Part shown: one piece after another, positions 39,851-58,084 of the stretch | Numbering within the stretch: position 1 is the first letter of the stretch | Layout: each line of letters opens with the position of its first letter | Made by a program: the position numbers and the translations under genes | Virus record (IMG/VR): IMGVR_UViG_3300044630_003053 | Span: 1 to 64,000 of that record | Direction: 5' to 3' (one strand) | Origin: a virus | DNA length: 64,000 nt | Notes under the pieces: model-generated | Told to the model about the DNA's origin: nothing | Databases searched by the model: none | The model's input: the letters and a program-made list of their open reading frames with translations, nothing else

Positions 39851-40560
39851 TTTTTCCTGTTTATACCACTAAAAACCCCACTTTTTCCTGTCTGTTTTAT
39901 CGTGATCAATTAATATATCTAAAACTATCTTTTTCTATCCCATATTTGGGTTCTAGTATAATTTATCCACAATTCCCCACTTTCTCCCACTTACTAGGAA
40001 TATACCCTGGGATTGACCCGTGAGCGAATCACAGACCATTTTATTTTTTCTACCAGAATATACCCCTAATATCATTATATTATTACGGTCGGACTCTTCG
40101 AGTCCTCCCTTCAGGATGTCATACAAGTGTCTTAGTATAACCCTTTATATATTATATTAATCTGTCATACATTAGGTTCCACGTGGAACCCTGAAGGGGG
40201 ACCGAAGGTCCCCCGTATAATGAAACATTCGTAATACGGGATGAAGGGGACCGAAGGTCCCCGAGTATACTTATAATACTTTTATACGGTCCTGATGTGA
40301 TACGTCTATAATCCCTGAACCGTAATACAAACATTACTGGGGTGAAGTAGAAAATGGTTTGCCAAACAACATTAACATTACTGGGGAGACCAATATTGTT
40401 TGGCAGATTATACGGGGACCTTCGGTCCCCTTCAGGAGAATCTTAGAATAATCCTATGGAAATTAAAAAAACCCTTAGGGATTTTCCGAAGGGTTCTTAG
40501 TATAGTACAATATATGTCTTACAAGGAAAGGATGAAGGGGGACCGAAGGTCCCCCGTAAG
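39744..40560. repeat. family of six CTGAAGGG-[GC-rich hairpin]-GTA elements, incl. four GGGGACCGAAGGTCCCC hairpins, two inverted
   Basis: copies at 39744, 40085 (inv), 40187, 40237, 40406 (inv), 40529. Confidence 0.75.
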
Positions 40561-40567
40561 TAATACT

Positions 40568-41452
40568 CTATGTCCATTTAAAAATAAAGTTGAACTTATC
40601 TAAGTTACTTGAAAAACGAACAGGAACTAAATCATTTGATTTAAGTATGTATTTTATTCTTTCTGTTAATAGTGTTTCTAATAGTTCTTTTTTAGGTACT
40701 GCATAATCTTCAGAAAGTTTTGGGTACTCTATATAGATTGGCATAAAATCGAAGTCTACTTCCCCAGTAATCTTGTTGTGGCTTCTTGCATCACATTTGA
40801 AATTAAGTTTAACATTTTTGGGGAATTTATAATATACCTTGATTTGTTTTAATTCACCATCATCTCCCATACTCGTATTGATTTCATCTGGTATTGTAAA
40901 GGTTCCCTCCTCGACGAAGTCAAGATGAACCTGAAGGTTATGTGGAGTATTCTTTTGGGATTGGAGTTGTCTCAGACCTCTATTAATTCTTTCCAAGGTG
41001 GTGTCGTCGAGTTCCATTACAGATCTAAATCCCACGGGGTCCTTAAGAAACGTCATCAGAGTCTTTACTTTACGAACTTCTTTTGTCCATTGAAGTATCT
41101 CCACGGGTAATACAGTGTCCATTGCACTGTTTAAGTTAAATCCAATGAATTCATTCATTCCCCCAGTAAATAATAGGTCACTGATCCTCACCGTGGTTTC
41201 ACCCATCTCATTACTATTCCCATCCATGTACTCGTCATACATGGGCTTGAACTTCTCCGCGATTTCGGTCATCAACTTGAATATTATATCTGGTTGGACC
41301 TGAGTCTCACGTATTACGATGTTCAAGTAAGCACCAAATGTACTGAAAGTTTCAGGTAATGTATAATAAATCTCACCGTTTATTGTGTTCAACGGACCCC
41401 TCAGAGACTTTACGAATCTCTCGAAATCTGATTTGTCTAATATTTTTCCCAT
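40568..41452 (-). CDS. hypothetical protein (294 aa)
   Basis: ORF. Confidence 0.5.
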   Translation of the reverse strand: MGKILDKSDFERFVKSLRGPLNTINGEIYYTLPETFSTFGAYLNIVIRETQVQPDIIFKLMTEIAEKFKPMYDEYMDGNSNEMGETTVRISDLLFTGGMNEFIGFNLNSAMDTVLPVEILQWTKEVRKVKTLMTFLKDPVGFRSVMELDDTTLERINRGLRQLQSQKNTPHNLQVHLDFVEEGTFTIPDEINTSMGDDGELKQIKVYYKFPKNVKLNFKCDARSHNKITGEVDFDFMPIYIEYPKLSEDYAVPKKELLETLLTERIKYILKSNDLVPVRFSSNLDKFNFIFKWT

Positions 41453-41518
41453 AGATATAAATATAAAAAAAAAGGTTCCATGGTGGTGGAACCTCTTAGT
41501 AATACATGTGTAATAAGA

Positions 41519-41698
41519 CTATCGTCCCATTAACTCGTTACGGAACTGTACGGCCTTTCTCTTACTAGAGAAATTCTTAGAGTACTTAGTACCATTAACA
41601 CTTACACGTACACGGTAAGATGAACCATCATGATAGATGTTGTCGGCGACAGGAACATACGTAGTTACTGTGGTGCGACGGGATGTTGTTTTTTTCAT
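41519..41698 (-). CDS. small AP2-like DNA-binding domain protein (59 aa)
   Basis: hand-translated: ...GSSYRVRVSVNGTKYSKNFSSKRKAVQFRNE fits the AP2/integrase-type pattern; terminator at 41470-41500. Confidence 0.35.
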   Translation of the reverse strand: MKKTTSRRTTVTTYVPVADNIYHDGSSYRVRVSVNGTKYSKNFSSKRKAVQFRNELMGR

Positions 41699-41968
41699 TT
41701 GTGACTATTTTAAGTTTATATATAAAATATAACAAATAATATCCAAATAAAAAAATCCTGTCAAAAAAATATTTTATCCCAGTAATGTTCCGAGTCCCTG
41801 ATCAGGTCCCACTGTTGAGATATCTATCTCCCCACTTCTTGGTCATATAGGCATCATACCTATGTACCTTGTTCGGGTTGAACAGGAATATCACGAAGTA
41901 GTAATCCCACTTCCACTCTAAATCTTTTAAAAACTTCTTCATATGATGTTGTTTATTCCCCAGTAATG

Positions 41969-42235
41969 TTATCCCATCTTCTCCTTCCTGAGGATGTCGG
42001 TCAGAAGATTTTTGTGATTTTGGAGGATTACACCGTGCTGTTTCTTAAGAGCTTCGTCCAAAGACATTCTTTTGTGTGTAATCCTCCAATTGATTCTGTC
42101 GGTCGACTCCCATCGTTCCCAATGTTTACCACTAGGTGATAATTGAATTCTACTGTGAATCTTTTTCATTTGCTTTTTATTTGATAATTCCGCAAAGGTA
42201 CGGTGTTTAAGGGTTAATAACAAACCCTTAAACAA
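41969..42235 (-). CDS. hypothetical protein
   Basis: ORF; start may be internal. Confidence 0.35.
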   Translation of the reverse strand: MFKGLLLTLKHRTFAELSNKKQMKKIHSRIQLSPSGKHWERWESTDRINWRITHKRMSLDEALKKQHGVILQNHKNLLTDILRKEKMG

Positions 42236-42794
42236 ATTCTTCAGTTTTAATCATATTGAAGTCAATTGACTTCAGTTTGAATATTAAGTAATCGATAGCT
42301 ATTCCCACTATCTTTCCATTGTGCTTAGCCACAAGAAGTCGGTAGGAACCATCTCCATAACCTGAAGACGATACTACCCCAGTATTATATGAACCCCACT
42401 GTTGGCTTGACAAGGTTAATCTGCACATCTTCTCATACCACTTATCTCCCTCACCCTCACACGGTAACATAAAGTCCATCTTAGGTGCTGTTATCTCATC
42501 AGCAATGGAATCATTCCTATAGGACTCCATATCAAATATCCCACACTGACCTGAGTCAACACCGATATCTGCTGCGGTAACTGTTCTCCAAGACAAATCG
42601 TCCTCCACATAATCCTTGTGGACAGCAACAAGTGCTGCACATCTTGTACCCCAACCACCGGTCTCATCCGATTTGAATGCTGTGGAGGAATACTCACCAG
42701 GTAATACATCTGTCAACTTATGCTGACACCAGGTAGGGACAGTGTAACAAGGGTCCGATACCATAACTTCCGAGCCTAAATAAATTTTTTCCAT
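42228..42794 (-). CDS. hypothetical protein
   Basis: ORF. Confidence 0.5.
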   Translation of the reverse strand: MEKIYLGSEVMVSDPCYTVPTWCQHKLTDVLPGEYSSTAFKSDETGGWGTRCAALVAVHKDYVEDDLSWRTVTAADIGVDSGQCGIFDMESYRNDSIADEITAPKMDFMLPCEGEGDKWYEKMCRLTLSSQQWGSYNTGVVSSSGYGDGSYRLLVAKHNGKIVGIAIDYLIFKLKSIDFNMIKTEEFV

Positions 42795-42795
42795 T

Positions 42796-43119
42796 TTAAA
42801 TTACATTTATTGTGAATGATTCTGTTTCGATTTGTCTGTGTAAATAAACTAAGTGTTCCATTGTAAGGTCGTTATAACCTAAGTCGTGGTAACCATCTCC
42901 TGTAATACCTTTGGTGATTAACTCACCTGTGGTTCCACATATTCCAATAACAACTACTTTAACTTGGTAGTCGTCGTCGAAGTTTTGGGTAAACCACACT
43001 GAGAATGGGCTGGTTAATTCTAATTCAAAATCATCCCCTCCGTTAAGTTTAACGGTTCTGTGGACGATATCTCGGTGAATACTATCACGGAGTTTTAATA
43101 ATTCTTGACCATAGTTCAT
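42796..43119 (-). CDS. hypothetical protein
   Basis: ORF. Confidence 0.45.
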   Translation of the reverse strand: MNYGQELLKLRDSIHRDIVHRTVKLNGGDDFELELTSPFSVWFTQNFDDDYQVKVVVIGICGTTGELITKGITGDGYHDLGYNDLTMEHLVYLHRQIETESFTINVI

Positions 43120-43175
43120 ATGATTAATAGTTTTAGTGTAATACGAAATTAGATATTATTTTCGAATATTCCAAA

Positions 43176-43658
43176 TTATCCTAGAATATTTTTTAGAACT
43201 TTAACATTCTCGTTAATCTCAAGGTCCATCACTTTAAGTAACTTCTCCTTAGCTAACTCCATAAACTCTACACTGTTACCCAGTAAATCAATGTCCGTCC
43301 CGTGCACATCCGTCTTCCCGACGATGACCCTGATGTCCTTAGTGCCTTTACCCTCTCTATAGAATAGAGCTCGAGCGTAGATGTACTCACGAACCAAAGA
43401 CAGTTTGATTTCATCAGCAACCGATTCCTTAGAACGGAGTTGCATAATGATTTCTTCTAACTTGGCTAACATCTCGAAGTTGGTCTTCATCATACGGATG
43501 CTGTTCTTATACTGATTACAGTACTTCACCAGCTCATCAGTGTGAGGAATACTTAAATCGATGTCCACATTAAGGAACCGATCGTACGAACTAATTCTAT
43601 CTCGGGTACCCACTATCTCGGTGAATACTCCTCCCGTTAAACGATTTTCTCTACCCAT
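43176..43658 (-). CDS. hypothetical protein
   Basis: ORF. Confidence 0.45.
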   Translation of the reverse strand: MGRENRLTGGVFTEIVGTRDRISSYDRFLNVDIDLSIPHTDELVKYCNQYKNSIRMMKTNFEMLAKLEEIIMQLRSKESVADEIKLSLVREYIYARALFYREGKGTKDIRVIVGKTDVHGTDIDLLGNSVEFMELAKEKLLKVMDLEINENVKVLKNILG

Positions 43659-43882
43659 TTTATTTTTGTTTTTAATTTGTTTAAAATCCCAGTAAACTTG
43701 TCCCCATCCTGGCTCACCTCAGGTGCGAACTCATATCTCGTGTTCATTGTACTTCCCAAATAACCAGTAAAGTATTTGGTTGGTTCAACATATTGGCTTG
43801 ATACTCTATATCTTTCCACCCACTCATTAAATGATAATGGGGTTTGGAATGTGCTCATCTTACATTTCAGTTTCTTTTCCAT
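43637..43882 (-). CDS. hypothetical protein
   Basis: ORF. Confidence 0.4.
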   Translation of the reverse strand: MEKKLKCKMSTFQTPLSFNEWVERYRVSSQYVEPTKYFTGYLGSTMNTRYEFAPEVSQDGDKFTGILNKLKTKIKWVEKIV

Positions 43883-44519
43883 ATATCTCTTTTACTTCGT
43901 TAAAAATTTCTTCTAATGTTTTAAGGTCTTCCTCCCCAGTAATAAAATGGAACATTTCCTTCACCGACTCGAAGGTTACATCTTCATCACTCTCGAACAA
44001 ATAGTCAATGTCGCCGTCGATAGATTCAAAGAAGTTCTCCTTGTCGAAAAGATATCTACCCTCATTGTATGAATAATCTTCTTCGGTTAATCCATTCTCA
44101 TTGTCAAAATAAGATTTACCACAGAAGTCACAACCTGGTTCTTCATAATATAACTCACACTTCACATTGAATAACCTACCCAAGTGTTGAATGAAGTTTA
44201 TTGGTGGTGACCAAGCTGAATCGAACGACATTGTTATTGATTCGTCATCATAAGTGATATTAGCTTCGTTGTATGACACATCCCACTTACAACCCCAGTA
44301 ATTAATGTTGGCATCGTACCATCCTCCGTGTTCGTATTCATTTAACTCAATAGATTTGTCACGACCAACAAGAGCCATAAAAATGCCAGGGGATGTGTTA
44401 TCCTTACTCTCGATATCTTCGAGATAAAATTTAATTCTGTCCAAGTTTTCGTTATCACCTGTAATAGTAAGGTGATTGTTGCACCAATTTGGCATAGTTG
44501 TATGATTTATGTTTAACAA
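43860..44519 (-). CDS. hypothetical acidic protein
   Basis: ORF. Confidence 0.45.
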   Translation of the reverse strand: MLNINHTTMPNWCNNHLTITGDNENLDRIKFYLEDIESKDNTSPGIFMALVGRDKSIELNEYEHGGWYDANINYWGCKWDVSYNEANITYDDESITMSFDSAWSPPINFIQHLGRLFNVKCELYYEEPGCDFCGKSYFDNENGLTEEDYSYNEGRYLFDKENFFESIDGDIDYLFESDEDVTFESVKEMFHFITGEEDLKTLEEIFNEVKEIYGKETEM

Positions 44520-44569
44520 AGATATAACAGGGATATCATTATTCCAAATAATATCCCCGTTATTTTATT

Positions 44570-45052
44570 TTACCAAGAAGCTCTGTATTCAAAGTCACCA
44601 GAGTACAATCCGTGTTCTTTGGATTGTTCGTGTTCTTCTAATAACTCCTCAATGATTTTGATAGTTGAGTTTACATCTTCTTTGTAATACTCATCAATTT
44701 CATCACCACCGAAAAAGAAACCCTGTACTGGTGGAAGAAGTTCTTTAGCCTTATCAAAGTTGGAACTAACTTCTTTTAGTGTTTCAAATAACTCTTTCAG
44801 CTTGTCCTCATCAACATTGATGTTTTGACATTCATCAATACCACCACCACAATTCTCAACGAACCATCCGTGAAGTGCATTGAACTTTCTCCAATACGCC
44901 ACCTGTTCGGTGATGTAACAAATACGATTTGGTTTAATGTCGTTACGAACTACACCATTCTTTTTAACTTCGATTTGGTGTTGTTGTTCAGGTGGGTTGT
45001 GTTCCCAATTTTGTACATAAGTTCTTTTGTACAGATACATGTCTAGTCCCAT
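44570..45052 (-). CDS. hypothetical protein
   Basis: ORF. Confidence 0.45.
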   Translation of the reverse strand: MGLDMYLYKRTYVQNWEHNPPEQQHQIEVKKNGVVRNDIKPNRICYITEQVAYWRKFNALHGWFVENCGGGIDECQNINVDEDKLKELFETLKEVSSNFDKAKELLPPVQGFFFGGDEIDEYYKEDVNSTIKIIEELLEEHEQSKEHGLYSGDFEYRASW

Positions 45053-45115
45053 GATTTTTTAGTTTAAGTGTTAATTAATAATGTAAAGGTATTACAATAA
45101 TTTTATTATACCAAA

Positions 45116-45439
45116 TTATTTTATGAAAAGTTTACTATCGATTGTAAATAATTCTTTGTACTCACTTCCGTCAGCATTCTGTCCGTTTAAATTCCAGAAT
45201 GGCAATACTCTTGGATTGTATTTTAAATGTGCGGTAGTTTCAGGAACAAAATCTTCTGTAAGGATTTCTATTTCTTTACAAAGAACATATGCACAAACGA
45301 CTTTGGTGGTTTCCCCAGTAAATATTTTCTGCGCTGCTGTCCTGTTGTTTTTCAGAACGCAATCAGTTAGTATTAACTGAACTTCAGCTGGGTGATAATA
45401 TTTCACCCAGCCGTTGTTATATTCAATTTTCCATTTCAT
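45116..45439 (-). CDS. hypothetical protein (start trimmed to MKWKIEY)
   Basis: ORF-track start 45679 would overlap the neighbouring gene by 200 nt. Confidence 0.4.
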   Translation of the reverse strand: MKWKIEYNNGWVKYYHPAEVQLILTDCVLKNNRTAAQKIFTGETTKVVCAYVLCKEIEILTEDFVPETTAHLKYNPRVLPFWNLNGQNADGSEYKELFTIDSKLFIK

Positions 45440-45473: not shown

Positions 45474-45926
45474 TTATGCTTTTTCAACTTCTTCCTTTTT
45501 ATATTTTTTAACAAATTGGGATGGAGTACCACGAAACAATTCAGTTTTATTTCCGTCGTTCTCATAACAAACAAACTCAATGGAGTAATCTTCTTTAACG
45601 ATAACATCATAAAGATAATCTTCCCAAGAATTTCCACGACTTGACAAAGATTGTACATAGGTGTTTCCTGTTTCGCCACCTTTTAATTTCCAAATGAGTT
45701 GAGCGGCTAAACAACCAGCTCCGTTGAATACTAATTTCTTTTCGTTGGCACCATACCCATTAACGACTTTTCCTGTTGATAACCATTCAGCGGTTTCAAG
45801 TGGATGACCTGTTGGGTATCCATCATACTGACGATAGATTAAACAGATTTCATTCTGTTTTACTTTTTTTACTTTTTTACCTGTTGAGTATTCCTCAATG
45901 ATGCGGTAAGTTGAACGAGTTCCCAT
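45474..45926 (-). CDS. hypothetical protein (start trimmed to MGTRSTY)
   Basis: TTTGG...TATCTTTGT promoter lies inside the extended ORF. Confidence 0.4.
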   Translation of the reverse strand: MGTRSTYRIIEEYSTGKKVKKVKQNEICLIYRQYDGYPTGHPLETAEWLSTGKVVNGYGANEKKLVFNGAGCLAAQLIWKLKGGETGNTYVQSLSSRGNSWEDYLYDVIVKEDYSIEFVCYENDGNKTELFRGTPSQFVKKYKKEEVEKA

Positions 45927-46102
45927 AATAGATTTTTTTTTGTGATTAATATTATAGTACAAAGATAATACTTTTTTATTACCTGCCAAATTTATTTTCA
46001 ACTTTTTTAAAAAAATATTTGCCGGCGTCATGCATAATCCTAAACATTACTGGGGTGTAATACGGATCTGATCGGCGCACGATCTGCAAAACTGGCTAAA
46101 CA

Positions 46103-46124
46103 TTACTGGGATTTACCCCAGTAA
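46103..46124. repeat. representative TTACTGGG...CCCAGTAA inverted-repeat hairpin, one of about 60 copies across 40.3-58.0 kb
   Basis: ATTACTGGGATTTACCCCAGTAA. Confidence 0.8.
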
Positions 46125-46196
46125 ACTTTCGCCTCAGGCCTGTGCAGGTACAGTGCACAGCAAAAAAAATCCCCACCTTTCGGTGAGGACATTAAA

Positions 46197-46997
46197 TTAA
46201 AGTTGTATGACAAACTTATTCTTTGTTAACTTATTTCGAACTCGTTTATATTTTAGTCCGACAATTACATTCTTTTTATCTTTATACCTCATATCGTATA
46301 AATCCCCATCGATTACTTTCCTATCCCAAAATGTTTTAGGTACTTTATTAAAAACAACCGCCACCCTTACATTCTTATTTAACATTGAGTGACACTCATT
46401 TAAATTGTGACCGCTATAAGAGAAAGTTAAATCGTAGTTCTTATATTTTTTAAGTAGTTCGATTCTTTTAGGAACCTTTGTATAATCGTAGAATTGGATG
46501 TGTTGAAAGTATTGTAAAATATTAACGGGTTTATCATTTACATGAATATAAAATGATTCGGGCGTTATATCTGATGTGTTATTCAAACGAACCGAAAATT
46601 TATAACCTAACTTCTTAGCTTTTAATTCTGTGGACTTAATTTCATCAAACATCCAATTAACAAAAAATTCCCTGTGTTCAAAAAACAATTTAGTTTTTGC
46701 AATTCGTGAACGATTAATTTTATCGTCCTCCATGTTCATCGTGTTCATCCCTGATTCATTCAAACATAACTTTGTACATTCTTTTGTTCTCATAGGGCAA
46801 ACCTCGTAACCGCTCATTTTTGCAGGAGCTAAGTACAAACTATATGTTAATTCATCGTACTTGAATGCCTTCTGATGTTTCGTCGTCATATTAACGGAAC
46901 CTAAATAAGATATCCCTGTTAATCTTTTTGCTTGAGCCTTAGTAGTGTAAATCATTTGTTTATTTTTTAGTGTAGTGAGTAATTGTTGTTTCTTCAT
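46197..46997 (-). CDS. hypothetical protein with Cys cluster (VCPMRTKECTKLC)
   Basis: ORF. Confidence 0.5.
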   Translation of the reverse strand: MKKQQLLTTLKNKQMIYTTKAQAKRLTGISYLGSVNMTTKHQKAFKYDELTYSLYLAPAKMSGYEVCPMRTKECTKLCLNESGMNTMNMEDDKINRSRIAKTKLFFEHREFFVNWMFDEIKSTELKAKKLGYKFSVRLNNTSDITPESFYIHVNDKPVNILQYFQHIQFYDYTKVPKRIELLKKYKNYDLTFSYSGHNLNECHSMLNKNVRVAVVFNKVPKTFWDRKVIDGDLYDMRYKDKKNVIVGLKYKRVRNKLTKNKFVIQL

Positions 46998-47145
46998 CCA
47001 CCGACTCTGTCACCAAATCAAAATTGTTTTTTTTACACAATTTTTCCAATGCAGGTAGGCACGCATCGTAGGTTTCTTCATCGTCGAAGATTGCTACCAG
47101 TTCAGCATATTTGCCATTATCCAATTCGAAATAAACTTTTACCAT
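46960..47145 (-). CDS. hypothetical small acidic protein
   Basis: ORF. Confidence 0.35.
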   Translation of the reverse strand: MVKVYFELDNGKYAELVAIFDDEETYDACLPALEKLCKKNNFDLVTESVDEETTITHYTKK

Positions 47146-47420
47146 AGTGTTGTTTTTTTAGTGTACACAAATATACAACTAATACTTTTATAATCCAAAT
47201 TTATTTTTAAATATTTTTTTGAGTTAGCGCATGCGCGCAGCACTGGTCTAACTTTACTGGGGTAATACAACAGCAGATTACGCTGCAGATCATAGCTCCA
47301 ATAATTACTGGGATTCCCCAGTAAACTTCAGCGCTGGTCCGGGCTGTGTTTGCGCTGAAAGTAATACGCAAAAAAAAGGGTGAACATTTCTGTCCACCCA
47401 ATCGTTCACACTAATAAACA

Positions 47421-47735
47421 CTAATCACTAATTCGTTTTTCTGTTCTAATACACTCAGCTTCCCACTGCTCACATAGAAGTAATACATCTTCCAACACAT
47501 TCTCATTCAACTCCCAATAACTTTCTTCGTAGGTGTCGATAGCGTCAGAACTACTTGAACGAGGTTCGTACACATTTACTTCGATATAATCTTCTGTGAA
47601 ATATTCACCAAGCCCAACATAGTTACCTAATGTTCCGATAAGAATACTATTCTCACCTTCTAATTCTCCAATACTAAAACATCCGTTGACTTTTAGTATG
47701 TCTGTAATACGATTAATGATTTCTGAATTTTCCAT
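47421..47735 (-). CDS. hypothetical acidic protein
   Basis: ORF. Confidence 0.45.
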   Translation of the reverse strand: MENSEIINRITDILKVNGCFSIGELEGENSILIGTLGNYVGLGEYFTEDYIEVNVYEPRSSSSDAIDTYEESYWELNENVLEDVLLLCEQWEAECIRTEKRISD

Positions 47736-47737
47736 TT

Positions 47738-48049
47738 TTAAATTGATTTAGTATTATCCCAAATTATATTACCTTCCTCGTCATACAACTCCTCCGTAGG
47801 TTCTCCACCATTTTCTTCGGGTATTAAACCTTCAAGAGTTTCGTCAATATGTTCCCACGGCAATTCCGTGTTATCTCCTCTTTCACGGAACTCGATTGCC
47901 AATTTCTTAGCCTCCTCCAATGAGTTAGCCTCTATTTCAAATTCTGTACGATACCAAGTCGTAACCTTTGTGTCTAAATGAAAATTAAATGTTGTTAGGG
48001 TCTGTTCCATTTTCCATTGATTTTTTAATTGATATAATAAGTAATACAA
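47738..48049 (-). CDS. hypothetical protein
   Basis: ORF. Confidence 0.45.
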   Translation of the reverse strand: MYYLLYQLKNQWKMEQTLTTFNFHLDTKVTTWYRTEFEIEANSLEEAKKLAIEFRERGDNTELPWEHIDETLEGLIPEENGGEPTEELYDEEGNIIWDNTKSI

Positions 48050-48121
48050 CCATTACCGAAAACAATACAATAACTCCGAATCCTAAAAGTAGGCAATATA
48101 AGACATTCATAGTTTTAATTT

Positions 48122-50017: not shown

Positions 50018-50338
50018 TTACACCAACAAATCTTGTACTGAATGTTCGGAAGTTTTTTCATCCCACACATCATCATTCCAATCTTCACCGACTTGGGTAC
50101 AAGTCTTGTAGAAAATTTCAACAACACCATTCTCGATGGTGACAACTCCTTCGGTTCTCTCGTTGATAGGAATCAAATCCTTTTCAACAAGAAACAAAAG
50201 TACGAGTTCGTACTCCAAAAATTGGTCGGTGTTCTCCGACTCAATGTATTCAACTTGTCCTTGGAAATCCAAGGAGAACTCAAACTCCACATTAGAGTTT
50301 AGAGTTTTTTCGATTTGGGAAGTGAACAAAGTGTCCAT
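50018..50338 (-). CDS. hypothetical acidic protein
   Basis: ORF. Confidence 0.4.
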   Translation of the reverse strand: MDTLFTSQIEKTLNSNVEFEFSLDFQGQVEYIESENTDQFLEYELVLLFLVEKDLIPINERTEGVVTIENGVVEIFYKTCTQVGEDWNDDVWDEKTSEHSVQDLLV

Positions 50339-50754
50339 AGTGTGTAGGTCTATTGGTTAGTAGACAATACAAATATAAAAAAGAAATTCCGTTTTACAAT
50401 ACATTTATGAAAAATTATTTTACTTTTTTTCTGACCCTGGTAATCCAAATATATTACTGGGTAATACAAGAATTCCAGTTCGGGGACCTACTGGAAATTA
50501 TTACTGGGATGTCAAGTTTTCAAATCAATAAACTTGACACATGTTGTAATAAAGTAAGTCAAAAACTTCACTTTTTGACACCTATTATACCCCAGTAAAG
50601 TAATACGTCCGAACCGTCGCGTCGGAAATTCTAACACACACTATAAACTCCCCAGTAAAGTAATACACCTAACCGGTCGAGGACCTGAGGTATGAACAAA
50701 AAAAAAAGGATAGTCTTTCGACTACCCTTCTTCACCTTTCCAACCTATGTATTT

Positions 50755-51315
50755 CTACACAACTACTCCTTCTAAATGTTGTAATACGGACTTACCTTCA
50801 TCCCAACAATCATTCTCACTATAATAACTTCCACAACATTCAACTAATGTTTTGTGTTCGTGACCTTTATTACAAGTTTCAATTTCATAAACTTTGTATT
50901 GATAAACTTCACCCGTTAAGTATTCATCATAAATTCTAACTTCACTATTCATAATCAAACTTAAATGTTCTTCACCCCTTTCAAATTCTTTACCACACAT
51001 TAAGTTCAATTGTTTTTCACTTATGAAAACCCAACCAACTTGTCCACTATCCCATTGACAACTGAACGGACTTGTGGATATAGTTATACCACTATGGTCG
51101 TACATATACAAAGGTTTAATCAAAAGGACTTTATGGTCACTTTCAATTTGTGACTTCAATTCATCCCAACTATCAAAGTCAACACTTTTGTAGTCAGTTT
51201 TGTCACCAATATCGTACCTTTTGTGAAAACAAATCATTGTAGTAATGTTATCCCACTCGGTACGAGGATTCATTGGGTCGTTATCGTGTTCGACAACTAA
51301 TTCATACTTTCTCAT
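50755..51315 (-). CDS. hypothetical Cys-rich protein (start at MRKYELV)
   Basis: ATG 51339 lies inside the TATATTTGTGTACAC promoter element. Confidence 0.45.
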   Translation of the reverse strand: MRKYELVVEHDNDPMNPRTEWDNITTMICFHKRYDIGDKTDYKSVDFDSWDELKSQIESDHKVLLIKPLYMYDHSGITISTSPFSCQWDSGQVGWVFISEKQLNLMCGKEFERGEEHLSLIMNSEVRIYDEYLTGEVYQYKVYEIETCNKGHEHKTLVECCGSYYSENDCWDEGKSVLQHLEGVVV

Positions 51316-51597
51316 TTTAATGTTTTTTAGTGTACACAAATATACAACTAATTCGGTTATATCAAAAATAAATTTGTTAAAATATTGTCAAAGAATTTTG
51401 GATACCCGTGAAGGTAAAATAATTTACTGGGATGTATGACAAGGATACCCCAGTAATAAACCTGCTTCCGTCTTCTGGAGATGGTCGTTCTTGTAATACC
51501 CCAGTAATAAAAACAGATGGACGGAGATGGAGAAATTTTTGAACAAAAAAAATCCACCCCTTTCGGAGTGGACTTCGGTTAGTAGGGGAACTAACCT

Positions 51598-52128
51598 TTA
51601 AATGAACTCGTAAATGTTTCCGTTGTATGACACTTCTTTAACATTATCCAAACTTACCGATAAGGTTTGTACCTTTCTTTCACTCGGTTGATTTTTGTAA
51701 TTGTTTGACTTCACTAACCAACTTTCAAACAAAGTTTGGTCAATAGGGTTTCCCTCAAACTCAAATTCAACTTGTGGTTTCACTTCCATAAACCACTCGT
51801 ATTGAAGATAATACTTTTTTGTATTTTCGTTGTAAAGGATAACATTGTTGATGTGGTTACCAACTTTGTTTTCACTTACTTTGAAATTACCTTCACCACC
51901 CCCCTTAATTTCATTTCCGATTACTCGTTGTTCGTACTCACCACCGATTAAAACTCTAACCGATTTTTTCTTCACAACTTTTCCATAATACTTGTTCAAA
52001 CCTTCCCTACCCCCTTTGTTCATTTTTGGGATAGTGTGTGTAACTAAATTCATAAATGTAGGATTTTTAACCTCGTTCATCATTTTGATAAACTCACCTT
52101 GTAGGATTTTGAAACGATTTTTTTTCAT
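51598..52128 (-). CDS. hypothetical protein
   Basis: ORF. Confidence 0.45.
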   Translation of the reverse strand: MKKNRFKILQGEFIKMMNEVKNPTFMNLVTHTIPKMNKGGREGLNKYYGKVVKKKSVRVLIGGEYEQRVIGNEIKGGGEGNFKVSENKVGNHINNVILYNENTKKYYLQYEWFMEVKPQVEFEFEGNPIDQTLFESWLVKSNNYKNQPSERKVQTLSVSLDNVKEVSYNGNIYEFI

Positions 52129-52544
52129 AACATTATTTTGTTTATTTTTTCAATACTCTAAATTACAACTTTTATCCAATATAACAAAATATATTTAATA
52201 TTTTTTTATCCACATTCTTAATTTTTTTTTGTGGACAAATTGTGGATAACTTTTTTCCCCTTGATCCAGAAAATAAATTACTGGGGACTCTCTGACAAAA
52301 AATCTGTCCCGTTCAGGAAAACAATACTGGGGAAAACGAAAAAACATGTATCGATGTGTTGATGCAGGAAAACAATACTGGGGACGTAAAGAAAAAAAAT
52401 CTGTAGATCTACCTGTTCGATATTACTGGGGTGTAATACGTTTTACCCCAGGAAACTTTTCCTGGACGATCAGATCCAAGGTTCATTGTTGTGTAATACC
52501 CCAGTAATTTTTCCCTGGAGACTCAGGTGAAGATTCAGTAGAAA

Positions 52545-52574
52545 CAAAAAACCCCCGAACTAAAAGTCCGAGGG
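52545..52574 (-). terminator. rho-independent terminator (module copy 2)
   Basis: identical to the 48845 module. Confidence 0.6.
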
Positions 52575-52597
52575 TTTCAAAAATAATCGTGTTGAGT

Positions 52598-52810
52598 CTA
52601 ATACATTATTTCAAACTTATCTTCATCGGGAATTACGGATAAACTTCTTCCGTTATCCCAATTAACACCATAGTAACCCATATCATCAACGAATACAATC
52701 GTACCCATTGTGTTAGGTTGAATAGGGTTTGTCTTTGGGTCATCATCCATTAGAATCAATCTAATTCTTTTACCAACTAATTCTTTTCTAATTTTTAATA
52801 GTTCAAACAT
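52598..52810 (-). CDS. DUF4314-like protein
   Basis: GTIVFVDDMGYYGVNWDNGRSLSVIPDEDKF. Confidence 0.45.
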   Translation of the reverse strand: MFELLKIRKELVGKRIRLILMDDDPKTNPIQPNTMGTIVFVDDMGYYGVNWDNGRSLSVIPDEDKFEIMY

Positions 52811-52821
52811 TGTTATAGGTT

Positions 52822-53022
52822 TTATTCGTGAGAAAATAACATTTCCAATAAACCTAAAACGATAGGATGTACCTCATTATTGTTTGAGTTCCCCCATTGT
52901 TTGACTTCCCCATTTTCTTGGATGTGAAAGTTTGTCTTTGTACCATCGGTCAGTTTGAACCAACCCTTAACCTCATTGTTCCCAATGAAATTCATTTTTT
53001 GTGTTGTGATTTGTGTTTCCAT
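52822..53022 (-). CDS. hypothetical small protein
   Basis: ORF. Confidence 0.35.
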   Translation of the reverse strand: METQITTQKMNFIGNNEVKGWFKLTDGTKTNFHIQENGEVKQWGNSNNNEVHPIVLGLLEMLFSHE

Positions 53023-53343
53023 TTGTTTATGTGTTTAGTACCCAAATATACAACTATTATTTTTATATACAAACATTATTTGTTAAAATTTTGTAAAAGA
53101 ATTTTCCCGTGTTGTAACATGAAATTTATTACTGGGGTAATACGAAGATGAGGTTTTTTCCAAGCAGACGACACGACATTACTGGGTGATGTCATACGTT
53201 CATCCCAGTAAAATTGTCCCATCTGCATGTGCGCAACGGCAGTTGCGTTTGCGCTGATTCGGTAATACACCTAAAAAGAGAAACCCCCACCATTTCTGAT
53301 GAGGGCTCACTTACTAACCACACTATTAAACAAAACTATTGTC

Positions 53344-53490
53344 TTACATATCGTACGCAAATGTAGGGATAAAAAACCAAAACATAAAGTAAAATGTTCC
53401 AATTATTAATATCAAACTAAAAATTGCATCCCAAAATTCCCTTTTGTCTTCCTTGTAGACCTCAATAATCGTCTTTATCATATCTTTCAT
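53344..53490 (-). CDS. small membrane protein
   Basis: internal start chosen to avoid a 146-nt overlap. Confidence 0.25.
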   Translation of the reverse strand: MKDMIKTIIEVYKEDKREFWDAIFSLILIIGTFYFMFWFFIPTFAYDM

Positions 53491-53491
53491 C

Positions 53492-53851
53492 TTAATATGT
53501 GTTTTGATTATAGGTATCATACGTGTTATAATTTCTTTGTCGATTGTTTTCTCGATACTCATTACGAGGAACACGTTGAGGGTATCTTGGTCGTTGTATG
53601 AAGGAGTTTTCCATTTGTTCATCAATCGGTTGAACATTCCAATCTAAATCCATTTGTTTAGAATTTGCCCAATGAATGTTATAAATTGTTTCAAGTCGTT
53701 CAGTTACAATGATATAACTATTCTCGTTGAAGTGAACTTTGGTCACAGGCTCACCAGTGTTCTTGTCAATGATTTCATACATTGAATGTACATTTTGTGG
53801 ATTCATTACCACCGGTCTTTTTGAATTTGAATTTGTCAGTTTGATTAACAT
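53492..53851 (-). CDS. hypothetical protein
   Basis: ORF. Confidence 0.45.
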   Translation of the reverse strand: MLIKLTNSNSKRPVVMNPQNVHSMYEIIDKNTGEPVTKVHFNENSYIIVTERLETIYNIHWANSKQMDLDWNVQPIDEQMENSFIQRPRYPQRVPRNEYRENNRQRNYNTYDTYNQNTY

Positions 53852-54237
53852 AACATTTAAATTTAAGAGTGAATAAATAATTTATAACATTTGAAATGTG
53901 AAATATGTCAAAAGAATTACCCAACAGATTGCACCAATAGTTAATGCTCGTTTTTCGTTATTTGGTATTTTCATTTTCTTGAATATGATTTATTGTTGAT
54001 ACAAAGATATAACAATTATATTAAACTTCCAAATTTATTTTAAGAAATCTTTTTTCGGGGGACAATCTATTACTGGGTTAAGCCCTGATGAAGTGGTAAT
54101 GTAGGTATTGGTACCGTCACACCCAAAATGGTTACTGGGTAATACATCCCAGTAAGTTATCCTGATGGGAAGATGATGTGGAAATTCTTGAGCATAAAAA
54201 ACCCCGTAGATACGGAGGTCTTCATTTAAAATCTTTA

Positions 54238-54906
54238 CTACTTTATCCGTCTTACAACGACCAAGACCATTGCCGCCCCCTTTTTAGCTCCGTCATTGTT
54301 GTCGAGATACTCGAAAATGTTTTCAATGTCATACTTGTAACCACCCTCACGATTAATAAAAGTTTTGATAACCCTCATAGTTTTACCATTGTCTTGACCT
54401 TTCGGTATTTGATAAGTGTTTAACTTATCGATAGTATTACAAAAAATTGTAGAAGGTCCTGGTGTAATTCGTTTGTTGAATGTTAGGGATATAGTACCAT
54501 CCACCTCGATAATATCGTTTCTAAAAATGTATTGGAGTTCCTGGTGAAATGTACCAATTTGACCACAATAGTCTAGTATCAAATGGCTATACTCCCCTTT
54601 GTTTGCATTGTATATAATATCCCCGATTGAACCAAAATAAAGTGAAGGAGTTTTCCCAACGAAATACTTCATTTTTTGTTTCTTGATATTTCGTTTTAAC
54701 TTGTCGAAGGTTATCTCATCTCGTTCGCACATAACATAGCGATACTTTCGAGAAACATCCTGGTAGATTGTTTTCTCAATTTCGAAATGTTCTGCAGGTA
54801 AAGAAAGGATTTTGTAGTTTTTCGTGTCCGAGTTGTGAATAGCGTGCACCATTATATTTCGTGCCGTGTTCTTGTTCGTTCCTTTGTGATTGGTGAAGGT
54901 GTTCAT
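54238..54906 (-). CDS. hypothetical protein
   Basis: ORF. Confidence 0.45.
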   Translation of the reverse strand: MNTFTNHKGTNKNTARNIMVHAIHNSDTKNYKILSLPAEHFEIEKTIYQDVSRKYRYVMCERDEITFDKLKRNIKKQKMKYFVGKTPSLYFGSIGDIIYNANKGEYSHLILDYCGQIGTFHQELQYIFRNDIIEVDGTISLTFNKRITPGPSTIFCNTIDKLNTYQIPKGQDNGKTMRVIKTFINREGGYKYDIENIFEYLDNNDGAKKGAAMVLVVVRRIK

Positions 54907-55239
54907 ATCATAACATTAAGGTTAAAGAATACACAAATATAAAACTAATTCCATTATATACAAAATAAAAATGTTAATCTTTTCTAAAAATTTATTTATC
55001 GGTCTGACGGGAAAGTTTATTACTGGGGAAATGAAGATGAAGATTTTCTGTAAGAGTAAAAAATCATTTACTGGGACACTCCACCCAGTAATTTAATACT
55101 GATGATCATCGGAGATTTCTTCAGACTTCACGGAGCGTAACCCAGTAAATTATCCGGATGGGAAGATGCAGGTAAAATTCTTGGACACAAAAAAGGGGTA
55201 CCATTTCTGATACCCCAATTTTCACTAACACCACAAATA

Positions 55240-55500
55240 CTAATCTTTATAAACGATTTTATTTGTAATGTCTTTTATTATCTCTCGTATTGTATTACCC
55301 TTAACCCCATTCTCAACCATACAACCATAAATGTTGGTTATCATTGTATAAACGTGTTTAAAGTCACGATACACTTCACGATTACCCCAACTATTACCTC
55401 TCTTAATTGTTAGTCTCGTGGATTCCCAACCTTTCTTATTGTTAACGTAAATTGTTATGTTGAAATTAGTATCGTAATACGTCTTTCTATATGTTTCCAT
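55240..55500 (-). CDS. hypothetical protein
   Basis: ORF. Confidence 0.4.
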   Translation of the reverse strand: METYRKTYYDTNFNITIYVNNKKGWESTRLTIKRGNSWGNREVYRDFKHVYTMITNIYGCMVENGVKGNTIREIIKDITNKIVYKD

Positions 55501-55501
55501 A

Positions 55502-56137
55502 TTACTTAGTTAAGATACCCAACTTATGTAGGTCGTTGTAATTAAATGTGTTATTCAACTTCTTACCGAATATGTTTTCGTAAATGATTTCCATATTAAC
55601 CTTATTCAACTTCGGTTTCTTAATTCCATACTTCTCACAAAGTTTAACAAAGTTTCGTGTATCACAAACGATTTCAACATTCCTACTTTCTTCGGTATTA
55701 AACCATTGATTACCCGACTTGGTACCAACCCCACTCACACCAATAGTACAGAATTTAAATCCACCACAATCTCCCCACCAATTATCTTTCATATCCATTT
55801 CATACACTTTGGTAATTAGAACAAAGATATTCTCATTGTTCCAATGTTTTCTAACCACGATTTGACCTTCAACGAATTTTTTAGTGTCCTTCTTAACAAT
55901 CTTTTTAGTTAATCTTTCCACTTCTTCCTCGTAGATTCTTCTCCTCATCATATAATCACTATACATACTATCTTTGATTTTGTCCACTCTACTATTGAAA
56001 GAGGTTTCAGTTTGATAATACTTGTTCTCCAACTCCTTGATTTTTTCTTTTGTCATTAAGATTTCATTCTCAAAATTTCTTAATGTGGTCGTTTCGTCTT
56101 TACGAGGTCGACCAACCTTTCTTTTTAATGTTTCCAT
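55502..56137 (-). CDS. hypothetical protein with N-terminal GRPRK AT-hook-like motif
   Basis: ORF. Confidence 0.45.
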   Translation of the reverse strand: METLKRKVGRPRKDETTTLRNFENEILMTKEKIKELENKYYQTETSFNSRVDKIKDSMYSDYMMRRRIYEEEVERLTKKIVKKDTKKFVEGQIVVRKHWNNENIFVLITKVYEMDMKDNWWGDCGGFKFCTIGVSGVGTKSGNQWFNTEESRNVEIVCDTRNFVKLCEKYGIKKPKLNKVNMEIIYENIFGKKLNNTFNYNDLHKLGILTK

Positions 56138-56477
56138 TTGTTTTGTGTTTTAGTGTTCACAAATATAAAACTAATTCCATTATATACAAAATAAAAATGT
56201 TAAAACTTTCTAAAAATTTATTAACCGGTAAACGGGGGATAATGTATTACTGGGGAAATGAAGATGAAGAATTCCTCAAGAGGTGAAAACGATTTTACTG
56301 GGATGTATTACCCAGTAATTGATTTACGTCCATGATGGTCCCACGACTCGTAGTTTTCTTCGCATATCCCAGTAATGTAATACCGGTGATCGTTATAAAT
56401 TTCTTCAGACTCTATCTTCAATATCCCAGTAATATGTCATACCTGTCCAACAGTGTGACGGAGATTCTTCCACAAAC

Positions 56478-56506
56478 AAAAATCCCCCGAACTAAAAGTC
56501 CGAGGG
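56478..56506 (-). terminator. rho-independent terminator (module copy 3)
   Basis: near-identical to the 48845 and 52545 modules. Confidence 0.55.
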
Positions 56507-56537
56507 ATTCAACCAAAAAACCTATGAAAACATAAAC

Positions 56538-56876
56538 CTAACTCTCAATCAACTTATCGATGACATCAACCAATTCGTCGAACATAATGTCGTGGTCAAT
56601 TGTTTCAACCACAACCATCATATTATTTATCAATCGAACTTCATAATAATCCAAACCATTAAGAGTAATCAATACAAAATGTTTCCACTTCATACCCGTT
56701 ACTTTTAATAAAAGACCTTTAACATAATCATCCTCAGTAAGACCAATTCGAATAACCTTTTCTACACCCCAACACATATAAGGTACACCCCCTTGTGTTT
56801 TGGTTAGTACATACATTGTTTCGTTTGGGTTGAACTCTCGTACACCCAACTCCATTAGTGTTTGTTCCGTTGTCAT
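56538..56876 (-). CDS. hypothetical protein
   Basis: ORF. Confidence 0.45.
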   Translation of the reverse strand: MTTEQTLMELGVREFNPNETMYVLTKTQGGVPYMCWGVEKVIRIGLTEDDYVKGLLLKVTGMKWKHFVLITLNGLDYYEVRLINNMMVVVETIDHDIMFDELVDVIDKLIES

Positions 56877-56949
56877 ATCATTTTGTTTTTAGTGTATACA
56901 AATATAACACTATTACCAGTTTATTCCAAAATAAATCTGTTAAACTTTT

Positions 56950-57640
56950 GTGAAGTTGAGGTCCCCCTGAAATATATTCCTGGGGTAACACCCCAGTAAG
57001 GTTTTTTGAAAAAACAAGAAAATTTTTTTTATACGGGTTTTTCATCCCAGTAATTTTATTTCAATTTTATAATTTTTTTCTCTGTATTTTTTTTACCCCA
57101 GTAAGGTTTTTTTGAAAACCAGGAAAAATTTTTTTTTTATTCGTAAAAATAATATTACTGGGGTGTTGAAATAAAAAAACTCAAAAAAAATTTGGATGTA
57201 CTGGAATTAGTAAAAAATCGGAGAAAAGTAAAACTATATTACTGGGGTGACGAAATGAATATTTTTTTTTTTAGAATATAAAGATAAAAATTTTTTTTGT
57301 TGTTTACAAACTTTTTTTATTACTGGGGTAACTTTTTTTAATGACCCAAAAATCCAGAAAACCCTGGAAATCCGAAAACATTACTAGGGTAACTTTTTCT
57401 GATCGTCGGAAAATTTTATTAATAACCTTACTGGGTTGTTTTCCAGTTGAGTCGTCTACCGGATGTCGTGAAAAACATTCCTGGGGTAACCACCCAGTAA
57501 CTAATTCATACAACCTTGTATTTTTTTTATACTCCTCGGCATTACCCCAGTAAACAAAAACAAGGATCAGGGAAAAAATCAGGTTTCCTTCCAAAACAAC
57601 CCAGTAAGGTTTCCTTCCAAAGTTACCGTGTCGTGGACGA
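56950..57640. repeat. dense field of about 12 TTACTGGGG(T)/ACCCCAGTAA repeats in A/T-rich spacer at the divergent strand-switch
   Basis: read directly. Confidence 0.8.
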
Positions 57641-57708
57641 GGAGTGGGAGAAATAAAAAACCCCCACCGAATTAACGATGAGGGTTTAGGGGGAACACAA
57701 CTAATATT

Positions 57709-57828
57709 TTATCTCCACAAGTTTACTTTACCAACAACACAATGAGGTGTCTTCGGTCTGTGATAACGATTCATTACACAAGACGAAAACAATACGATGA
57801 CCATAACTAAACTGAAAACCTTTTTCAT
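57709..57828 (-). CDS. small putative lipoprotein (39 aa)
   Basis: MKKVFSLVMVIVLFSSC lipobox-like; hand-translated. Confidence 0.3.
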   Translation of the reverse strand: MKKVFSLVMVIVLFSSCVMNRYHRPKTPHCVVGKVNLWR

Positions 57829-58084
57829 ATCATTTGATTTAGAAGACAAAGATATAACATTAGTTTCATTATACCTAATATAAAAGTTAATGTTTTCATA
57901 AGGTTCATGGACCCGGATGGAAACAGGGGACTTATTACTGGGTAGACCTCCCTATACCCATAGGTGGGGGGTCCCCCCTCCCCGTATCCCCCCTTATATA
58001 GGGGGTATTTTGACATCCTAATAGGGGGGTCAATGCCGTAACAGAAATTTTTCCGGAAATTTTTTGGGAAAATTAAGGTTTTCC

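Follow-up and report, generated by a model that had tools for sequence, protein, structure and literature searches.

An oriented, lineage-specific 8-mer at the cassette boundaries of an 18-kb gene block in uncultured phages

The subject of this report is a short asymmetric DNA signal in the genome of an uncultured virus, analyzed in a 64-kb window (positions 1 to 64,000 of IMG/VR virus record IMGVR_UViG_3300044630_003053). The signal, the 8-mer TTACTGGG (CCCAGTAA when read on the other strand), is present in 61 exact copies, every one of them within positions 40334–57942, compared with 2.2 copies expected and a maximum of 7 in 100 dinucleotide-preserving shuffles. The copies punctuate a block of genes that lies between plus-strand blocks and in which all plausible genes are on the minus strand; they obey strict rules of orientation, and related phages gain, lose, and permute whole gene cassettes at the arrays that they form. 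Because the signal changes in step across related phage lineages, the sites are most likely bound by a protein, and that some sequence-specific protein reads them is a more secure proposition than any account of what this protein does. As a tentative account, we favor the possibility that the sites constitute a polar operator/roadblock network that is read by a lineage-specific protein and that doubles as a set of shuffling linkers, resembling in this respect the promoter-early stem-loop (PeSL) elements of T4-like phages.

Results

A Strict Asymmetric Core Confined to One Gene Block

The initial annotation of this DNA, made from the sequence alone, had proposed about 60 repeats in a minus-strand array, and the count of 61 agrees with it. 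Mapping of the motif over the window placed all copies in a single block of ~18 kb, that is, the distribution is anything but uniform. The core is unusually strict, with just 14 one-mismatch variants of the 8-mer in the region, about seven of which occupy array positions (ATACTGGG three times, TTCCTGGG three times, and TTACTAGG once). It is asymmetric and not palindromic, single copies are common, and together with weaker flanks the consensus reads roughly aWAnA-TTACTGGG-GTAW, i.e., a core of TTACTGGG(G) within a site of about 16 bp.

A second polar motif, GTATTAC/GTATGAC, had also been noticed beside the repeats, and it too is specific to the region: 49 of its 51 copies in the window are found at 40.1–57.9 kb (40118–57900), often abutting the core. 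Thirty-seven of the 51 are on the sense (minus) strand, many of them inside genes and away from the 8-mer, and, unlike the 8-mer, this motif is unchanged across all lineages. Where GTATTAC abuts the core, the sequence GTATTAC-TGGG-GTAATAC forms a palindrome with 7-bp arms.

Opposed Half-Arrays between Terminators and Promoters

In what follows, copies with TTACTGGG on the coding (minus) strand are called S and copies with TTACTGGG on the opposite strand are called A; W is the lineage of the window itself, and L-numbers denote related loci. Read in the direction of the genes, a junction consists of a terminator, one to three S copies, a head-to-head pair, one to three A copies, and a promoter of the Bacteroidetes type, with the array filling a terminator-to-promoter distance of 150–300 bp. 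The S-then-A order holds in 11 of 11 junction arrays and is never interleaved, for which P is about 10^-7.5 under random orientation. The ten copies outside the arrays are all S, and at least six of them lie inside predicted open reading frames (ORFs), in different reading frames. A copies, which account for 28 of the 61 copies in W, are all found in untranscribed gaps, confined to the stretch between the S copies and the promoter, and isolated sites are all in the sense orientation in five lineages.

Like-oriented neighbors are separated by 44–64 bp in 20 of 24 cases, and variant copies fill three of the four larger gaps. Nine central spacers, between the two members of a head-to-head pair, measure 4–17 nt (4, 5, 6, 8, 8, 8, 16, 17, and 17) and three measure 57–82 nt. 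Neighboring arrays resemble one another as paralogs over longer stretches; the arrays at 55 kb and 56 kb, for example, are 83% identical over 165 bp. One AT-rich, gene-poor stretch near the upstream end of the block (Table 1) differs in copy number among relatives and looks like two junctions enclosing an "empty cassette."

One to six motif copies per junction, often forming hairpins as inverted pairs, had been described initially. The actual arrays have two to five copies, and one stretch has ten; the inverted pairs are real, and as single-stranded DNA they fold weakly (8-bp stems, about −6.8 kcal/mol). What does not hold up is the hairpin, or a cruciform, as the functional form: stems are 8 bp with loops of 4–82 nt, single copies are equally conserved, variant partners (TTCCTGGG) are uncompensated, and in lineages with sense-only copies it is the sequence that is retained and not the pairing. 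Readings as a CRISPR-like array, as iterons only, or as attC were ruled out by the orientation of the copies, the length of the repeat, and the lack of associated genes. Mobile repeats of the REP/REPIN or miniature inverted-repeat transposable element (MITE) type were rejected because at least six copies lie in predicted ORFs at positions shared with relatives and because the core is not palindromic; no RAYT or TnpA gene was found, the only transposon-related gene being a TnpB gene that lies outside the block and is absent in a relative.

Cassettes as Transcription Units

Promoters of the form TTTG-N18-20-TAnnTTTG are found upstream of the genes, and a scan for terminator-like hairpins returned 30 on both strands (11 expected), 14 of which, on the minus strand, close genes or operons. 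Together these delimit about 14 transcription units in the whole block, about 12 of them across 46–57.7 kb, whereas the 40–46 kb part consists of multi-gene operons with two terminators only; the earlier description of about 30 small genes, each with its own promoter and terminator, was thus overstated. Independent JGI gene calls on a 99.99% identical contig support these genes. A scan for sigma-70-type promoters was uninformative (78 sites, 72 expected).

The arrays keep a fixed register with the host-type promoter. At six W promoters, the distance from the A core to the −33 TTTG is 54–57 nt, and in L135 it is 54–58 nt despite unrelated sequence. The promoter-proximal S cores of L135 are located 8–9, 18–19, or 29 nt from the −33 element, a 10-bp periodicity.

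Selection Acts on the Core and Not on Its Surroundings

An alignment of one junction from seven genomes shows invariant cores, with the 49-nt spacer between two of them largely rewritten at constant length. When 11.8 kb of the window was compared with five relatives, identity in the core was 0.92–0.98, as against 0.86–0.98 at codon positions 1 and 2, 0.69–0.90 at codon position 3, and 0.70–0.90 in the array spacers, and in comparisons at about 90% identity the spacers fall below codon position 3. Because the core is conserved like codon positions 1 and 2 while the spacers drift, the 8-mer is, as judged from these alignments, under strong purifying selection within DNA evolving at or above the neutral rate.

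The Core Switches in Concert between Lineages

In more distant relatives, gene families and the layout of the junctions are maintained, with a different core. L140 and L132 have TTACTGGG, as does W, L133 has TTGCTTGGC, L135 has TTGTTTGGC (29 copies in 16.8 kb), L142 has TTG[T/A/C]TTGGC, and L144 has TTTA[G/T]TGGC (TTTAKTGGC). The order terminator, S, A, promoter, with S copies only outside the arrays, also holds in four further lineages, and two related phages carry two or three core variants in one genome.

The switch extends to copies inside the operons and genes. The copies at 43279 and 43688 have orthologous counterparts with the lineage-specific motif in L133 and L135, and the copy just upstream of the ATG of the gene for a 160-amino-acid (aa) protein is present in W and L135. 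Within this protein, codons ~125–127 read TTA CTG GGT (LLG) in W, TTG CTT GGC (LLG) in L133, and TTG TTT GGC (LFG) in L135, so that in each of the three the codon triplet equals the array motif of its own lineage; the differences between W and L133 are synonymous only. Since orthologous in-gene sites each carry the motif of their own lineage, TTACTGGGK, TTGCTTGGC, and TTGTTTGGC are homologous variants of one core. Moreover, a core that switches in concert between lineages, synonymous codon positions included, indicates that the sites are probably recognized in trans by a sequence-specific reader with lineage-specific specificity. An operator network had been one of two readings offered at the outset, and it gains support from both lines of evidence, that is, purifying selection on the 8-mer and not its surroundings and concerted switching between lineages.

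Cassettes Turn Over at the Arrays

The other initial reading, shuffling of gene cassettes, gains support as well: relatives gain, lose, and permute cassettes, alignment to them reveals breakpoints at the arrays, and gene order is accordingly far from strictly conserved. A map of gene families shows whole promoter-gene-terminator units, each with its own half-arrays, present in some and absent from other close relatives, with extra or missing cassettes in contigs 3300044846_003114, 3300042301_002383, and 3300027710_000022. In two relatives, an extra promoter-gene-terminator cassette sits exactly between the inverted copies of the 49898–49929 pair; in 3300044846_003114, homology to the window continues up to and through the 8-mer on both sides of this cassette, the flanking spacers are unlike the empty-site spacer, and there is no target duplication. 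A second extra cassette, of ~750 bp, is found inside the 48615–48804 array of relatives, with head-to-head pairs on both sides.

Conversely, 3300027710_000022 lacks the cassette at 54201–55141 (gene 54238–54906, between the 54070–54155 and 55020–55148 arrays) and also exactly one 57-bp unit at 56319–56368. The window itself carries an 82-nt non-coding insert (50509–50590) in a central spacer where relatives have 7 nt; the insert, absent from three relatives, contains two good hairpins (GTCAAAAA..TTTTTGAC and GTCAAGTTT..AAACTTGAC). Cassette order can also be permuted without inversion (51315-52810-53851 in L135 compared with 53851-52810-51315 in the window), and the content between two conserved anchors, the gene for a 211-aa protein at the head of the block and a DUF932 gene, differs widely among lineages. 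In the clearest cases, the exchange junctions are located at the center of the head-to-head pair. The coordinates of the arrays, isolated copies, promoters, and terminators are collected in Table 1.

Table 1. Copies of the 8-mer and associated transcription signals in the window (S, coding-strand orientation; A, opposite orientation)
Feature	Coordinates	Strand	Details
Isolated antisense copy	57935–57942	+	upstream end of block
Large AT-rich, gene-poor array	56992–57607		SSS AAAA (+1 variant) SSS; 10 copies; spacer GC 0.26
Junction array SSSAA	56247–56432		between terminator 56510–56480 and promoter of gene 55502–56137
Junction array SSAA	55020–55148		
Junction array SAA	54070–54155		
Junction array SAA	53129–53211		
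Junction array S A(A A)A	52278–52507		two antisense copies are ATACTGGG variants
Junction array SSA	51424–51507		
Junction array SSAA	50454–50658		central spacer is the 82-nt hairpin-rich non-coding insert
Junction array SA	49898–49929		
Tenth isolated sense copy	49422	-	inside DUF932 gene
Junction array SSAAA	48615–48804		
Junction array SAA	47254–47324		
Junction array SAA	46047–46124		
Nine isolated sense copies, operon part	40763–45321	-	45314, 44294, 43935, 43688, 43279, 41959, 41778, 41162, 40763
Two antisense copies	40334–40385	+	downstream end of minus-strand block, meeting plus-strand block
About 12 transcription units	45900–57700	-	from promoter/terminator scans and JGI gene calls
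−7 boxes	56906, 56167, 54941, 54009/54037, 53050, 51344/51370, 50377, 49808/49836, 48548/48576, 47175/47203, 45967/45994		
Intrinsic terminators	57687, 56510, 55216, 54217, 53308, 52578, 51576, 50733, 49998, 48877, 47399, 46190		

Proteins Encoded in the Window

Pfam and PHROG scans of ~80 window proteins yielded methylases, a DnaA-domain-IV protein, an HNH-type homing-endonuclease match, TnpB, and many metabolic genes, with no recombinase and no polymerase among the matches. A recombinase domain was found neither in the scanned proteins nor in the Pfam lists for L140, L142, and L144, which cover part of the genome; similarly, there is no RNA polymerase or sigma factor in the window and no repressor or integrase in the window or in the flanks of relatives. 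Among the cassette genes, the Pfam matches are to DUF932, DUF4314, DUF1737, GP88, and an Api92-like domain; the AP2-like domain that had been assigned to one of them was not detected in the proteins scanned. The 211-aa head protein has an AT-hook-like N terminus (KVGRPRK), a long helix, and a small β-barrel (predicted model, pLDDT 67).

The AP2-like and DnaA-domain-IV proteins had been suggested as binders of the repeats, a suggestion for which no evidence was obtained: an AP2 domain did not turn up in the scanned proteins, and a DnaA domain IV is expected on DnaA boxes and not on the 8-mer. The latter protein (125 aa, 27143–27520) consists of the DnaA DNA-binding domain IV alone (Pfam Bac_DnaA_C, E = 3.6e-15). 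Three DnaA boxes are clustered at 52206–52249, just upstream of the gene at 51598–52128 (two exact TTATCCACA and one TTGTCCACA), with no enrichment of such boxes window-wide, and it is more plausibly to these that the DnaA-domain-IV protein relates.

Avoided Tetranucleotides and Sequences at the Head of the Block

The window avoids GATC (30 sites observed and 163 expected outside the arrays) and GCGC (5 and 39), as well as CGCG, CTAG, and AGCT. The junction arrays (46047–56432), ~4% of the sequence, hold 14 of the 44 GATC sites and 14 of the 19 GCGC sites. L140, L142, and L144 show this concentration too, and in the arrays of L135 it is CCGG and AGCT that are concentrated instead. About 8–9 nt upstream of many cores there is a box, cTGATCrtcc, the GATC of which is conserved in relatives. 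Protection by a bound protein, methylation-sensitive sites, or import driven by recombination are possible reasons for the presence of GATC and GCGC in the arrays.

At the head of the block, the stretch 57940–58045, which overlaps a doubtful ORF of 97 aa and has no Rfam match, contains G-runs, C-runs, and short palindromes (ccccccttatataggggg and others). Next to it, a 23-bp tandem repeat, ACTGCGCACATTTAAGACTTTTT (2.7 copies, 97% match, 58085–58147), lies where the minus-strand block and an HNH-motif gene (58214–58720) diverge, in the intergenic DNA between them. An Rfam scan of the whole window returned no family, and the window contains no tRNAs.

Relatives, Probable Host, and Phage Type

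More than 12 contigs from IMG/VR and ENA/JGI, recovered by scanning for the pattern and by searches anchored on proteins, share the arrays, with 72–98% identity over the block. Against 50,697 isolate phage genomes, neither a near-identity search with the 18-kb block nor a protein search with a neighboring 633-aa protein gave a match. A scan of a genome collection for the three-copy architecture returned two short contigs of a Bacteroidetes metagenome-assembled genome (MAG) from Lake Erken, which are probably mis-binned phage, and five single matches, seemingly fortuitous, in genomes that are unrelated; nothing in the scan indicated a prophage or a family of repeats in host genomes. The Lake Erken contigs, together with the promoter type, point to an uncultured, probably large phage of freshwater Bacteroidota, and the auxiliary genes fit. 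Because one close relative is a 340-kb contig, the data suggest a large or even jumbo phage.

The auxiliary genes are in the plus-strand block at 1–40000 and include thymidylate synthase (thyA), NifU, Fe-S assembly proteins, a dTDP-sugar epimerase, an S-adenosylmethionine decarboxylase, a glycosyltransferase, an SPFH protein, one N6/N4 and two C5 DNA methylases, and a PcfJ-like protein. Adjoining the minus-strand block is a 2-kb segment (37753–39754) with a TnpB/Cas12f-like gene (38325–39692; OrfB_IS605 and TNB domains), in place of which relative L018 has 1.1 kb of different sequence; the segment appears to be a recent insertion of the insertion-sequence type, unrelated to the arrays. Seven related contigs (L041, L042, L043, L057, L080, L100, and L018) start or stop within the cassette block, and most contigs with the 211-aa protein are shorter than 5 kb. 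Evidently, the repeats and the strain-level variation in cassettes break assemblies.

A search of the literature with the 8-mer turned up primers and 16S matches only, and no description was found of an architecture that combines the properties of a stoperator network with those of PeSL cassettes. The paper on the crAss-like phage phi14:2 reports no common motif upstream of its early transcripts and nothing comparable to the 8-mer.

Discussion

A Polar Operator/Roadblock Network

The strict core, selection for sequence rather than pairing, concerted switching between lineages, the placement rule for S and A copies, and the exchange at arrays lead us to a tentative reading of the sites as a polar operator/roadblock network. 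The 8–9-bp core would be recognized, as an asymmetric site, by a DNA-binding protein dedicated to it and specific to the lineage, probably encoded by the phage and probably binding as a monomer, and the network would extend over a block of roughly 18 kb of early or accessory genes. S sites are placed after terminators and in operons, and A sites only in the untranscribed gap ~55 nt upstream of the next promoter, such that a polymerase entering a junction from either side would meet sites of both orientations and be trapped. Which polarity applies makes a difference. If the bound protein blocks a polymerase arriving from the GGG side, S sites would be permissive and the arrays would trap read-through and antisense transcription at each boundary; if it blocks one arriving from the TTAC side, the whole block would be silenced as the protein accumulates, in the manner of stoperators. 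At the same time, the arrays with their promoter and terminator flanks are the sole homology between otherwise unrelated cassettes and could thus act as recombination linkers; because no other sequence is common to unrelated cassettes, these would move as whole promoter-gene-terminator units.

Several observations weigh against this reading. No candidate binding protein emerged, in that the scans of ~80 window proteins gave no repressor-like match, and comparison of the model of the 211-aa protein with the PDB gave only insignificant matches to PWWP/SH3-like barrels (E above 0.01). An 8-bp core is short for a specific repressor, the 44–64 bp spacing of like-oriented copies is not tightly helically phased, and the central pairs, spaced by 4–82 nt, cannot be bound by a rigid dimer. 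The antisense copies do not have one uniform role, since they make up nearly half of the copies in W and are few in L135. Finally, fast-evolving spacers and exchange junctions at pair centers would also fit an active recombination site.

Alternative Explanations

The last point is at the heart of an alternative in which the 8-mers are cassette ends for a dedicated recombinase or transposase, or in which crossover takes place at the head-to-head pair as at attC or lox, so that moving cassettes would be the main purpose of the arrays. A cassette bounded by inverted 8-mers (5'-CCCAGTAA...TTACTGGG-3') with like-oriented subterminal copies does resemble the ends of Tn7 or Mu, and much of the turnover would follow naturally: the extra cassette exactly between inverted copies, the second one flanked by head-to-head pairs, the insert in a central spacer, permutation without inversion, the hypervariable content between anchors, and the "empty cassette." The core is as strict as an enzyme recognition site, six central spacers are 4–8 bp as in the core sites of tyrosine recombinases, and array spacers turn over faster than synonymous sites. 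Nevertheless, in the 64 kb and in the flanking DNA annotated for three relatives no integrase, transposase (other than the variable TnpB outside the block), or HUH enzyme was found, central spacers of 16–82 nt are unfit for a crossover site, and at the inserted cassette the spacers mismatch the empty site and target duplication is lacking. Cassette ends would leave no function for the ten copies that stand alone in sense orientation, one of which is maintained at an orthologous codon position, and would not explain the fixed distance to the −33 element; we regard a dedicated recombinase as unlikely. An explanation that dispenses with any reader, namely that the arrays are passive linkers for homologous recombination in the strict PeSL sense, left over from duplication of terminator-promoter modules, would account for indels through crossovers in the paralogous stretches that neighboring arrays share, and PeSLs do act in this way in T4-like phages. 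Yet it is hard to see why an unread 8-mer should be invariant while its surroundings decay to or below the synonymous level, why its in-gene copy should be kept by synonymous changes that match the motif of each lineage, or why its orientation should be strict, and we give this explanation hardly any credence.

Two further possibilities assign the signal to a moving machine. In one, the core is a promoter, or an essential part of one, for a phage RNA polymerase or a sigma-like factor, possibly initiating at GGG, with strictness and lineage switching reflecting co-evolution of polymerase and promoter as in T7/T3/SP6 or in the early promoters of jumbo phages. The motif is strict, polar, and lineage-specific, S copies are found upstream of genes (sometimes within the preceding gene) at 17–28 nt before the ATG, and the 340-kb relative means that this may be a jumbo phage, a group with phage-specific early-promoter motifs of ~10 nt (PMC7598289). 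However, 28 of the 61 copies in W are directed at the upstream cassette's terminator and not toward any gene, each cassette already has a canonical host-type promoter, and tandem copies at ~53-bp intervals in an obligatory S-then-A order lack promoter logic. That the distance to the host −33 element is fixed or periodic speaks for interplay with the host RNA polymerase rather than for an independent promoter, and no polymerase or sigma gene of the phage was found in the window, all of which makes a promoter role quite improbable. In the other, the copies are polar signals for a DNA-translocating machine, either Ter-like barriers to forks and helicases or Chi-like sites that attenuate a host nuclease of the RecBCD/AddAB type and stimulate recombination next to each cassette. 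Two opposed groups of asymmetric sites have the geometry of a fork trap, the sense orientation is strict across a block of co-oriented genes, the 8-mer is itself strict and G-rich at its 3' end, recombination-like turnover is concentrated near the arrays, and the AT-rich array at 56992–57607 could be an origin. Against this, a Chi signal could do its work from any position and at any distance from a promoter and should track the host, whereas the core varies among close phages, two of which have two or three variants per genome; a dozen fork traps in 12 kb would be without obvious purpose, and no Tus/RTP-like or nuclease-related gene was identified. We judge signals of the Ter or Chi kind to be very improbable.

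Implications

The operator/roadblock reading can be taken further, to a virus-borne "cassette platform," a rather unlikely but coherent picture. Here, a monomeric protein would insulate the modules, each accessory gene being shielded transcriptionally or topologically by a polar boundary trap, and the same sites, when bound, would set the points at which modules are swapped between co-infecting relatives. Core switching would then act as a compatibility code, determining between which phages regulation or cassette exchange can occur, and the whole would be functionally an integron-like system without an integrase.

If the operator/roadblock network is borne out, it would be a second, independent case of a dispersed asymmetric operator/roadblock network that co-evolves with its factor, in a phage group and host phylum different from those of the mycobacteriophage stoperators and with a new architecture in which opposed half-arrays box each cassette. 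It links two questions, namely how interference among dozens of strongly expressed accessory genes is avoided and how intact modules are exchanged. The graded cores (TTACTGGGG, TTGCTTGGC, TTGTTTGGC, and TTTAKTGGC) and their synonymous covariation amount to a natural experiment for finding the protein and its specificity, and the motif provides a sharp marker for a hyperplastic accessory, possibly anti-defense, region in an abundant family of freshwater phages.

Comparison with Known Systems

The closest parallel to the sites themselves is found in the cluster A mycobacteriophages, which have 20–30 asymmetric repressor sites oriented with transcription and at syntenic positions, with a consensus that co-varies with the repressor (PMC6550527). 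The stoperators of L5 and Bxb1, bound by a monomeric immunity repressor that blocks elongation in these temperate phages, share with the present sites their number (dozens), shortness, and asymmetry, the location both between and within genes, and a lineage-specific consensus that shifts gradually at syntenic positions (PMC6550527). A bias toward the direction of transcription is seen in the isolated sites of five lineages, most of which lie in operons or genes, but in W 28 of the 61 copies are antisense. The differences are that the core here is 8–9 bp rather than 13 bp, that the sites are restricted to one 18-kb block rather than distributed genome-wide, and that about half of them form ordered S-then-A arrays with ~53-bp spacing at cassette boundaries; in addition, the probable host belongs to the Bacteroidota, and neither a repressor gene nor signs of lysogeny turned up in the window or in the flanks of relatives.

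For the cassettes, the parallel is with the PeSLs of T4-like phages, where modules of a terminator and a host-type promoter lie between small ORFan genes in a hyperplastic region, cassettes are transcriptionally autonomous, and the modules mark the limits of indels and replacements when close relatives are compared (PMC2839356, PMC4122927). A further mark of PeSLs is that mini-circles are excised in infected cells through recombination between modules. Conservation in PeSLs resides in the promoter and the stem-loop, with no arrays of an invariant oriented 8-mer, no lineage switching, and no in-gene copies, whereas here the most conserved element is a separate oriented 8-mer. Integron arrays (attC, IntI) also have small co-oriented cassettes, imperfect inverted repeats with short conserved ends and a variable center, and a cassette content and order that vary between relatives. 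Integron cassettes lack promoters, however, and end in an attC of R''/L''-L'/R' structure. In the present case, no integrase, attI, or common promoter was found, the cassettes carry their own promoter and terminator, and at the conserved ends there are perfect 8-mers, which recur in the same orientation ~53 bp away and also singly within genes.

The opposed half-arrays recall the Tus-Ter and RTP-Ter systems at the termini of E. coli and B. subtilis, in which asymmetric sites form two opposed groups and the enzyme passes the first and meets the second. Ter sites are about 20 bp long and number about ten per chromosome, where they make up a single trap; here, there would be eleven small traps in a phage, one per gene cassette. 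With the early promoters of jumbo phages such as phiKZ and AR9, which serve virion RNA polymerases, the sites have in common conserved, phage-specific motifs of ~10 nt (PMC7598289), but those motifs are AT-rich, near −10, and all oriented with the genes, in contrast to the nearly half of the present copies that oppose the genes and to the host-type promoters that accompany them. The feature described here is genuine and far from random, recurs throughout a family of uncultured phages, and is less simple than the initial annotation had it; it combines the properties of a stoperator network with those of PeSL cassettes.

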